A stretch of 47,060 bases of DNA from Ignavibacteria bacterium (GTDB taxonomy: Bacteria > Bacteroidota > Ignavibacteria > Kapaibacteriales > UBA4661), in contig JAAFHM010000002.1 of NCBI GenBank assembly GCA_013298375.1, positions 1-47,060 of the forward strand, written 5' to 3'. The notes beneath the pieces are model-generated. The model was not told where the DNA came from, did no database searches, and worked only from the letters and a program-made list of their open reading frames with translations. Below are positions 43,943 to 45,211 of the stretch, piece after piece. The translations under genes were made by a program, and so were the position numbers. Position 1 is the stretch's first letter. Every line of letters begins with the position of its first letter.

Positions 43943-45211
43943 TCAATAGTATAAATGCAATTGCAAATTCCAGCGCGTTGAGCGGAAAGTTTCGGTGTCG
44001 TAATAGCGAAATTCGGGTCGAAGTTCGATAAACGGCAGAGGAAAAATTTGCGCGCCGATGGAGGCTTGTGTACTGTATAACTCGGCTATGCCCGCACTGG
44101 CATTGGGGTCGGAAACTCGCGTTGTGCCTTGTTCAAAGCGCACAAAGGGCAGCAAACCGGACAACAACTGATAAGTCAGCATCACCGAATAATTGCGCGT
44201 CTGCCGACCGTCTTTAATGCCTGAAAGCACGTATTCGCCTTGCAACGCAACCCTATCGCTGAGTCCCACGCCAGCAAAAATATTCATCATCGAAAACGTA
44301 CGATTCACAAAATACGAGCCGCCTAAATATGAATTAAAAACGTGGTCTTCGGTGCGAGGAAAAATAGCAGCGCGGGCGAGATAGGACGGCGATGCTGCCA
44401 GCGCACCAAGATTTGATGCGGCTGCGGCGGTGCTTATTGTTTCGCCGAGCAGAGGGGCGGTTTCCCCAAAGGTATTAACGGTGCGGAGTTGCCCAAGCGA
44501 ACGCGGCAAAAACACGCCAGCCGTCAGTGAAAGCCACTGTATGCCCTCAAAATTCACCTCAGCACCGTATTCAGCAAAATTTGGTGCAATAATCGGTATC
44601 GTATTCGTTCCCGCGACTTGGCGGACAAGCATGGTGTGATCGTCGTACCGAATCCCGATAGAGGGCTGGAAATGCCCAATACGCAATTGCGGAAGCGTTA
44701 TACCGGGCTGAATAATTGCCGAAGCCATCCACGCTTGCTGCCCAGTGAAGGGCAAAGCCCGACCCGAAGACAGTGCTAACAAACCGCCAACATCAGCCGT
44801 TGCCTCCACTGTGAGCCAAGGAGTCGCTATCCATGCGGCATAGACTGACGTTTGCATGGGAATAAAGCGTGTTGAGGCATTGGCAGTACGGGGCGAGCGG
44901 GTCATCTGCACACGGGCATCGAAGCCGAAGAGCAGCGCACCATCAGCAATGCTATTGGATTCCGCTTTTTCAATAAACTCCAGCCCAACGCTGTGCGCGG
45001 ACAGTATTTTCATATCTTTTGCCATATACCACCCCAAGTCATTCCGTAAGCCGCTTCCTTGCGAGGTAATATGACAATTCAGGCATTTATTGCCCGTGAG
45101 CAGCGTAAATTGTGGTATCGCCGATACCTTTGTTGCTGAGACGAGCAGCAGAAGTACCACAGAGGCTATCCAGACTCGCCAATAGCGAAAAAACACCGTA
45201 GCAGACATCAT
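43943..45211 (-). CDS. Cyc2-like fused monoheme cytochrome c / outer-membrane beta-barrel porin
   Basis: 422 aa. The signal peptide ends ...ATKVSA. A single CXXCH (C43-L-N-C-H47, nt 45071-45085) lies 12 residues into the mature protein. The remaining ~370 aa have amphipathic strand-like composition and the C-terminus WNLQLHLYY ends in an aromatic residue. Confidence 0.6.
   Translation of the reverse strand: MMSATVFFRYWRVWIASVVLLLLVSATKVSAIPQFTLLTGNKCLNCHITSQGSGLRNDLGWYMAKDMKILSAHSVGLEFIEKAESNSIADGALLFGFDARVQMTRSPRTANASTRFIPMQTSVYAAWIATPWLTVEATADVGGLLALSSGRALPFTGQQAWMASAIIQPGITLPQLRIGHFQPSIGIRYDDHTMLVRQVAGTNTIPIIAPNFAEYGAEVNFEGIQWLSLTAGVFLPRSLGQLRTVNTFGETAPLLGETISTAAAASNLGALAASPSYLARAAIFPRTEDHVFNSYLGGSYFVNRTFSMMNIFAGVGLSDRVALQGEYVLSGIKDGRQTRNYSVMLTYQLLSGLLPFVRFEQGTTRVSDPNASAGIAELYSTQASIGAQIFPLPFIELRPEFRYYDTETFRSTRWNLQLHLYY

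Follow-up and report, generated by a model that had tools for sequence, protein, structure and literature searches.

Introduction

The question raised by the locus described here is whether a fused monoheme cytochrome-porin of the Ignavibacteria is the iron oxidase Cyc2 or a relative of it, and what such a protein might do in the outer membrane. The gene lies at 43943..45211 on the minus strand of a stretch of 47,060 nucleotides (nt), the whole of which is referred to as the window, from contig JAAFHM010000002.1 (positions 1 to 47,060) of the Ignavibacteria bacterium assembly GCA_013298375.1, and its product of 422 amino acids (aa) is called heme-porin in the following. A first-pass annotation of the window had named it a Cyc2-like fused cytochrome-porin. 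Judged from its sequence, the protein is a distant homolog of Cyc2 that belongs to a sister family in a Cyc2-type superfamily and falls outside Cyc2 as defined so far. On balance, we favor the reading that the members of this sister family are outer-membrane heme-porins which relay electrons with periplasmic redox lipoproteins encoded in the same operon.

In genomes and metagenomes, Cyc2 is the genetic marker on which the inference of microbial Fe(II) oxidation chiefly relies. Its activity as an iron oxidase has been shown by experiment (PMC8406198). Keffer et al. (2021, PMC8406198) recognize it by a signal peptide, a single CXXCH motif, a 16-strand porin modelled on OprO/OprP and a length of at least 365 aa, together with the motifs AXPXFAR[Q/K][T/Y] upstream of CXXCH and PXL four residues downstream of it; sequences without the upstream motif were dropped from their Cyc2 set.

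Features of the heme-porin and its family

The open reading frame (ORF) of the heme-porin starts with ATG, and a Shine-Dalgarno-like GAGGAG is found 8 nt 5' of it. A signal peptide was read by eye at aa 1-31 (nt 45119-45211, minus strand), with the basic residues R9 and R12, a hydrophobic core at aa 13-25 and V-S-A before I32. It appears Sec-like, and the homologs align at A/[IL]PQF. The heme region follows at aa 32 to about 92, with CLNCH at aa 43-47 (nt 45071-45085); C43 is the 12th residue of the predicted mature form, and no cysteines other than C43 and C46 occur in the protein. Around the motif the sequence is AIPQFTLLTGNK-CLNCH-ITSQGSGLRN. The remaining part, aa 93-422, is predicted by AlphaFold2 as a barrel of 16 strands and ends in a C-terminal signal (...LQLHLYY) with an aromatic last residue. 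The signal peptide, the single CLNCH and the aromatic C-terminus given in the first-pass annotation are all borne out by the reading of the ORF.

Comparison of the heme-porin with Pfam and NCBIfam delivered no family at E<=0.1, and neither the N-terminal 80 residues alone compared with Pfam nor the protein compared by sequence with the PDB gave a match at E<=10. A homolog search yielded 192 homologs at E<=1e-3, with 'hypothetical protein' in every source name shown. Where an organism is given, the homologs originate from metagenome-assembled genomes (MAGs) of Kapabacteria, Ignavibacteria, Latescibacteria and Bacteroidota, the nearest one (80% identity) from a Candidatus Kapabacteria MAG. CXXCH occupies the same position in 118 of the 120 homologs listed, and the other two are N-terminally truncated fragments; conservation of the motif among orthologs, proposed in the first-pass annotation as a check on its reading, is therefore clear. 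C43, C46 and H47 are invariant in an alignment of 59 sequences with identities down to 37%. The family has invariant motifs of its own, namely PMQ, GxFQPSIGxRYDDHT, ELRPE.R and LQ.H.[FY][YF].

The size of the family was estimated by an exhaustive profile search of 1.84 billion representatives (clusters at 50% identity), in which 144 matches were obtained at E<=1e-30, 391 at E<=1e-10 and 1,178 at E<=1e-3, the weakest tier of this last count being defined by E-value only. Cluster members for which a source is given are named only as 'hypothetical protein' and come from MAGs of Kapabacteria and Bacteroidota, and for the 391 clusters the organisms given are mostly Kapabacteria, Ignavibacteria and Latescibacteria. 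The heme-porins are a large, unnamed family without a Pfam or NCBIfam model. Divergent branches seen in the profile search carry [AS]LPRFAL..G..CxxCH.NPTGG..RN, and their PRFAL is intermediate between PQFSL of the family and PxFAR of Cyc2.

Two observations were made at single loci of the family. On a 5.6-Mb contig (locus L003) three to four tandem heme-porin copies or fragments are located at 1-1122, 3850-4944, 4960-5466 and 7980-9152; they have near-identical N-termini with unannotated genes in between, and may represent either a true amplification or an assembly artefact. At locus L198, a very divergent family member adjoins a type IX-secreted protein (4110-4799) with a Temptin_C domain (Pfam E 2.1e-14), whose motif CGTCHVSAAGGGARTAFG is closely like CxxCH....GGG.RN..G in the heme region of the porin family. 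This secreted protein may carry the same mini heme module in soluble form.

Relationship to Cyc2

In its general build the window protein agrees with Cyc2. It has a signal peptide (by eye), one N-terminal CXXCH, a length of 422 aa (at least 365 in Cyc2) and an OprO/OprP-like 16-strand barrel. When compared with the Cyc2 of Acidithiobacillus ferrooxidans, Cyc2PV-1 of Mariprofundus and Cyt572 of Leptospirillum, representing clusters 1-3 (McAllister 2020, Keffer 2021), the family shares the signal peptide, A-x-P-x-F with a single CXXCH exactly 8 residues past the Phe, a heme region of about 60 residues joined to an OprP/OprO-like 16-strand barrel, a length of about 400 aa, the aromatic C-terminus, and profile-profile homology over the whole length. 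OprP and OprO were also used as templates for the barrel of Cyc2 (PMC8406198). The spacing from Phe to Cys in the window protein is the same as in ORFs bearing the Cyc2 motif, and the pattern A-x-P-x-F-x3-[T/Y]-x3-C-x-x-C-H at the mature N-terminus is common to the family and Cyc2.

The signature motifs themselves differ. In place of AXPXFAR[Q/K][T/Y] the window protein reads A-I-P-Q-F-T-L-L-T, in which A, P, F and T alone match; the family has TLL[T/S] for AR[Q/K][T/Y], and AR[Q/K] is replaced in every family member listed. Downstream of the heme motif PXL is missing: the window protein reads H-ITSQ-GSG-L-R and the family consensus is QGGGLRN where Cyc2 has xxxPxL. The Leu alone can be aligned, and solely with Cyc2 variants that are two residues longer, such as that of locus L063. 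A further difference from Cyc2 is the operon of the family, with genes for a Rieske protein, a small membrane protein, a YceI protein and a cytochrome c lipoprotein.

For a quantitative comparison, GTDB species genomes were scanned with the back-translated motif PxFAR[QK][TY]xxxCxxCH, which delivered a reference set of at least 120 loci at a chance expectation of about 9 matches (own calculation). These loci originate from Mariprofundus and other Zetaproteobacteria, Acidithiobacillus, Nitrospira defluvii, Chlorobiaceae, Acidobacteriota and Gemmatimonadota, and also from Kapabacteria, Ignavibacteriaceae, Melioribacteraceae and Marinilabilia. Their ORFs are uniform, with one heme, A[IV]PxFAR[QK][TY]xxxCxxCHxxxPxL..FG and an aromatic C-terminus; 89 of them are full-length (387-531 aa). 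Against a hidden Markov model (HMM) built from these 89 proteins, the window protein scored 15.4 bits and the family -0.3 to 26.6 bits. When one Cyc2 subgroup at a time was left out of the model, the held-out subgroups scored 51-174 bits, the window protein 12.5-16.7 bits and the family -4 to 28 bits; these HMMs serve as a surrogate for the FeGenie cluster models. Single linkage by BLASTP (E<1e-10, >200 aa) placed 88 of the 89 Cyc2 proteins in one cluster and 59 family members in another, and the cross-matches between both groups are confined to the first 37-131 residues.

Profile-profile comparison reaches further. The family alignment matched that of the 89 Cyc2 proteins in hhalign with 97.0% probability (E 1.1e-10) over 321 co-linear columns, the heme region alone with 95.4% (E 2e-8) and the barrel alone with 83.8% (E 7.9e-6). 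The score of the barrel was 46.6, compared to 15.1 for a reversed control and at most 26.0 for 20 block-shuffled controls. Scores of the family against single Cyc2 subgroups were 52-71, those between Cyc2 subgroups 107-213, and several of the alignments between Cyc2 subgroups span only about 125 N-terminal columns. The earlier designation as a Cyc2-like fused cytochrome-porin therefore stands for the architecture and for a remote homology visible in hhalign, and fails for membership in Cyc2 itself, as judged from the motifs, the HMM scores and the BLASTP clusters. Likewise, the match to Cyc2 models foreseen in the first-pass annotation was obtained in the profile-profile comparison only (97%, E 1.1e-10), the surrogate HMMs giving 12.5-16.7 bits against 51-174 bits for held-out Cyc2.

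Classical, motif-bearing Cyc2 occurs in MAGs of Kapabacteria, Ignavibacteriaceae and Melioribacteraceae (L015, L061, L035, L041). Both Cyc2-type families are found in the same broad groups and are therefore distinct paralogous lineages. The Cyc2 found in Fe-oxidizing Chlorobium is a classical one and lies outside the heme-porin family. As a side result, classical Cyc2 was seen to be common in Bacteroidota (L015, L018, L035, L041, L061 and further loci of the reference set); these proteins are about 390-400 aa long, show AIPAFARKY...C..CH, end in ...GFVSAF and are encoded, among others, by a Kapabacteria MAG and by Marinilabilia salmonicolor, which is in culture.

Three papers on Cyc2 diversity (PMC10654088, PMC12442345, PMC9342728) contain neither a Cyc2 in Ignavibacteria or Kapabacteria nor a Rieske partner for Cyc2; Kapabacteria appear only in PMC9342728, in a taxonomy passage. 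A literature search for Cyc2 together with Rieske, lipoprotein and Bacteroidota delivered nothing relevant.

Predicted barrel

The structure of the heme-porin was predicted with AlphaFold2 from the 59-sequence alignment. The model has a mean predicted local distance difference test (pLDDT) score of 91.3 and a predicted template modelling (pTM) score of 0.84, and shows 16 long beta-strands from residue 93 to residue 421. In a Foldseek search of the PDB the best matches of the barrel were OprP (2o4v, E 3.6e-12) and OprO (4rjw, E 2.3e-11), with TM-scores of about 0.5, followed by other general porins of 16-18 strands. The transmembrane barrel of about 16 strands expected earlier was thus clearly recovered in the model, both in the number of strands and in the porin fold matches. 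While OprP and OprO are the best structural matches, they differ from the heme-porin by an identity of about 11%, by the lack of a sequence-level match, and by having neither a heme nor an N-terminal CXXCH segment.

Strand 15 (E396/R398/E400/R402), strand 16 (R413/Q417/H419) and strand 1 (D98/R100/Q102), which are neighbors in the barrel, carry invariant polar residues in alternation with hydrophobic ones. Because of this alternation the polar stripe probably faces the lumen, where, going by the model, it could dock the heme and hold its propionates, or guide an ion (cation). Candidates for the distal heme ligand are the invariant residues M119, H192 (in the RYDDHT motif) and H419.

Operon organization

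The heme-porin gene is the second of five minus-strand genes separated by gaps of 21, 15, 26 and 3 nt. The first gene (45233..45643) encodes a predicted monoheme cytochrome c lipoprotein of 136 aa with the lipobox FFAG-C31 and CYSCH at aa 68-72; its cytochrome matches in Pfam and NCBIfam are weak, all under the curated cut-offs. The heme-porin gene is followed by that of a small protein (43577..43927) with hydrophobic N- and C-terminal segments, referred to as the small protein with two transmembrane segments (2-TM), which has a conserved FGTE...W..GLD core and no match in Pfam or NCBIfam. Its true start is likely M23 (MWKLSIAV...). The His of WVAHG in this protein was considered as a heme b site and rejected, as it is not conserved across the homologs. 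The fourth gene (42912..43550) encodes a YceI-like periplasmic protein of 212 aa with a signal peptide (Pfam PF04264, E 2.4e-18); proteins of the YceI family bind polyisoprenoid lipids. The last gene (42315..42908) encodes a Rieske [2Fe-2S] lipoprotein exported by the twin-arginine translocation (TAT) pathway (Pfam Rieske E 5.2e-12; UCR_Fe-S_N TAT signal).

In a consensus scan a strong intrinsic-terminator-like hairpin (42245..42276, minus strand) with a 14-bp stem and a T-run was found 39 nt past the Rieske stop codon, where the five-gene operon probably ends. A sigma-70 promoter scan 5' of the operon, which does not cover Bacteroidota promoters, delivered nothing. There are no multiheme genes in the operon, with at most one CXXCH per ORF, and neither the operon of the window nor the related loci looked at showed a gene for cytochrome b.

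The Rieske protein of the window has a TAT motif RREFL, the lipobox LVNA-C and the cluster boxes CTHSGC and CLCHGS, and its extra Cys pair corresponds to the disulfide Cys of bc1/b6f-type Rieske proteins. It thus carries the ligands, the disulfide Cys and the TAT signal of the bc1/b6f type, and lacks the gene context of a cytochrome b complex. Of 44 Rieske partners of the family, 43 have the CxH...CxxH ligands, 32 both disulfide Cys, 43 the TAT motif, and most the lipobox Cys. Their nearest relatives in the PDB are small proteins of the high-potential b6f/bc1 type (8hn2, 5cxm and 1zrt). Cyanobacterial PetC3 (5cxm), a TAT lipoprotein outside the b6f complex, resembles the Rieske partner in its small domain, CxH...CxxH, the disulfide Cys, the TAT signal and the absence of an adjoining cytochrome b; the similarity is only about 39-41 bits, and the Rieske partner differs by its genetic coupling to an outer-membrane heme-porin. 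In a 60%-identical operon (L001 11090-12934, and L002) the Rieske partner is a protein of 614 aa in L001, in which the Rieske domain is followed by repeated immunoglobulin-like segments and a type IX sorting domain (Por_Secre_tail). In some species the iron-sulfur partner might accordingly be exposed at the cell surface.

Gene linkage

A metagenome scan with the family alignment delivered 69 loci, 33 of which have flanks of at least 2 kb upstream and at least 2.5 kb downstream. Genes on the same strand and within 3 kb of the heme-porin gene were counted as linked. By this measure the Rieske lipoprotein is linked in 30 of the 33 loci, the small 2-TM protein in 22, YceI in 15 and the cytochrome c lipoprotein in 10. 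The commonest orders are porin-small-YceI-Rieske (10 loci) and cytc-porin-small-Rieske (8 loci), and the pattern of the operon is repeated around homologs at 38-60% identity. Homologs of the cytochrome c lipoprotein are located 5' of the porin on the same strand in L001, L125 and L127; homologs of the small protein lie directly 3' of the porin gene in these three loci and in L003, and YceI is also present in L001 and L127. At the 120 classical Cyc2 loci listed the small protein, YceI and cytochrome c are found in none, and a Rieske-like ORF in five. Since the operon partners are nearly absent at classical Cyc2 loci, the module is specific to the heme-porin family. No Rieske gene is present at L198, the single long locus of the very divergent 'PRFAL' branch, and the linkage of the Rieske gene is therefore claimed for the core family. 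The conserved operon partners, which are missing from the first-pass annotation, are the most informative new feature of the locus.

Several variations were observed at individual loci. The five Rieske-like ORFs within about 8 kb around classical Cyc2 belong to L013, L025, L030, L081 and L093, and in L013, L025 and L081 the ORF lies 3' of the Cyc2 gene on the same strand; occasional cases of a Cyc2-Rieske association may exist outside the heme-porin family. In L143 (5950-7116), and also in L135, L140 and L159, the small 2-TM protein and YceI are encoded in one ORF with no stop in between, which suggests a fusion and a physical link of the two accessory proteins. Homologs of the cytochrome c lipoprotein (L125 4542-4934; L127 5337-6008 and 9252-10166) show non-canonical heme motifs in place of CXXCH, namely CGFGGCH and CAQSGCH (CX4CH) and CLAACH (CX3CH).

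Proposed function and alternatives

From what is observed, namely the build of the protein and its conservation, its distant kinship with Cyc2 and the linked genes, a route for electrons can be proposed. One c-type heme would be attached to C43 and C46, with H47 as the proximal ligand, on the N-terminal segment of about 60 residues. As this segment is too small for a free-standing cytochrome, we infer that it packs in the lumen of the barrel, as has been proposed for Cyc2, and that the heme there relays single electrons across the outer membrane. On the outer side the heme would meet a small soluble redox species able to pass into the pore, and the analogy with Cyc2 points to Fe(2+) as the most likely one. 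On the periplasmic side the contact would be made with the near-universal partner, the TAT-exported, disulfide-bridged bc/b6f-type Rieske lipoprotein, and in the organism of the window the monoheme cytochrome c lipoprotein would also take part. Electrons would then reach the aerobic respiratory chain. Disulfide-bridged Rieske centers of the bc1/b6f type usually have positive potentials, and for this reason an inward flow from Fe(II) to an oxidase is the most economical reading. By analogy with Cyc2, Fe(II) oxidation by the heme-porin is a reasonable hypothesis.

The proposed task, to carry electrons across the outer membrane through a beta-barrel, is shared with the MtrAB, MtoAB and PioAB systems. 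These differ in using a separate decaheme cytochrome that is threaded through a larger barrel; the heme-porin has one fused heme, 16 strands and no multiheme gene in its operon.

It is possible, and is suggested here tentatively, that the heme-porin and the Rieske lipoprotein form an unrecognized, widespread outer-membrane electron-transfer module of bacteria of the Fibrobacteres-Chlorobi-Bacteroidetes (FCB) group, here Kapabacteria, Ignavibacteria, Latescibacteria and other Bacteroidota, with the small protein, YceI and cytochrome c as accessories. The first periplasmic partner would then be an iron-sulfur lipoprotein in place of a cytochrome or cupredoxin, and the module might support Fe(II) oxidation or electron uptake in lineages that searches for Cyc2 may miss.

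A number of points weigh against an electron-relaying sister family of Cyc2. No paper on the heme-porin family or its linkage to Rieske genes was found. The homology of the barrel by itself was judged against reversed and shuffled controls, among which there were no unrelated porin families. With FAR[Q/K][T/Y] and PXL replaced, the surroundings of the heme and its redox potential may be unlike those in Cyc2. A bis-His heme has a low potential and is poorly suited to Fe(II) oxidation. To our knowledge, Kapabacteria, Ignavibacteria and Latescibacteria are not established iron oxidizers. The other genes of the window are ordinary housekeeping genes of a heterotroph, with no link to iron metabolism seen among them, and the proposal does not account for YceI or the small membrane protein.

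The strongest alternative is an outward or non-respiratory conduit, in which electrons would pass from the Rieske and cytochrome c lipoproteins through the heme-porin to an external or in-pore acceptor, as in assimilatory reduction of Fe(III), reduction of humics, or detoxification of reactive oxygen species or Fe(II). The structural and linkage evidence would be identical in this case, as the sequence alone gives no direction of flow, and the wide spread in heterotrophic lineages (391 clusters at E<=1e-10) fits housekeeping or protection better than lithotrophy. Many homologs of Cyc2 in organisms that do not oxidize iron are reportedly noted by Keffer et al. as well. We nevertheless regard an outward conduit as rather unlikely: positive Rieske potentials are better suited to accepting electrons from Fe(II) than to reducing Fe(III) minerals, and multiheme cytochromes are missing from the operon.

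Less probable still is a substrate-specific diffusion porin, for instance for anions as in OprP/OprO, in which the heme would have a structural or sensory role or act as a plug. The phosphate porins are indeed the best fold matches, and the invariant stripe of Arg, Glu, Asp and Gln in the presumed lumen recalls the arginine ladder of OprP. Pure transport would leave unexplained, however, the near-obligate linkage to the Rieske lipoprotein and the frequent one to the cytochrome c lipoprotein, and it agrees poorly with an invariant motif for covalent heme attachment in a heme region that is homologous to that of a proven iron oxidase. Finally, that the heme-porin is simply a divergent Cyc2 ortholog, a dedicated Fe(II) oxidase whose host is an iron oxidizer, is very improbable in spite of the same architecture, the remote homology and the poor conservation of barrels even among classical Cyc2 subgroups, given that PXFAR[Q/K][T/Y] and PXL are absent in all family members listed and the upstream motif was required for the Cyc2 set (PMC8406198), that the left-out HMM scores, the gap in hhalign scores and the BLASTP clusters set the family apart, that classical Cyc2 is present in the same bacterial groups as a separate lineage, and that the operon partners are missing at classical Cyc2 loci (Rieske-like ORF in five of the 120 listed).

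Other genes of the window

The window further contains purK and genes for polysaccharide synthesis, a MacB-type efflux system, a peptidase, fatty-acid oxidation, acetyl-CoA synthetase, asparagine synthase and an enzyme of glycoside hydrolase family 18 (GH18). Two tandem paralogs of about 540-560 aa (38887-40506 and 40534-42207, plus strand; 33% identity, E 2e-77) run convergently toward the Rieske gene at the end of the operon. Both proteins combine a signal peptide and a soluble N-terminal part with a long hydrophobic stretch rich in Gly and Ala, and neither matches a Pfam or NCBIfam family. Of two small adjacent genes at 30884-31923 (plus strand), one codes for a putative lumazine-binding protein (PF12893) and the other for a protein with a DOMON domain (PF03351), a type of domain that frequently binds heme or sugars. 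At 33304-36307 (plus strand) an ORF of 330 aa without a Pfam family is followed by the gene of an Eco57I/MmeI-like N6-adenine DNA methylase of 707 aa, which may be a restriction-modification or defense locus.

Implications

Because the scores of the heme-porin family against the surrogate HMMs are far below those of held-out Cyc2, searches with Cyc2 as a marker may well miss it. Should the heme-porin serve another purpose than electron transfer, the family would be a warning against deducing iron oxidation from 'one CXXCH plus porin' alone. If the heme-porin does transfer electrons, electron exchange at the outer membrane would be spread more widely in taxa and environments than current surveys show, and the near-obligate Rieske lipoprotein would offer a concrete candidate, open to testing, for the first step in the periplasm beyond a Cyc2-type protein, a step that has long been unclear.

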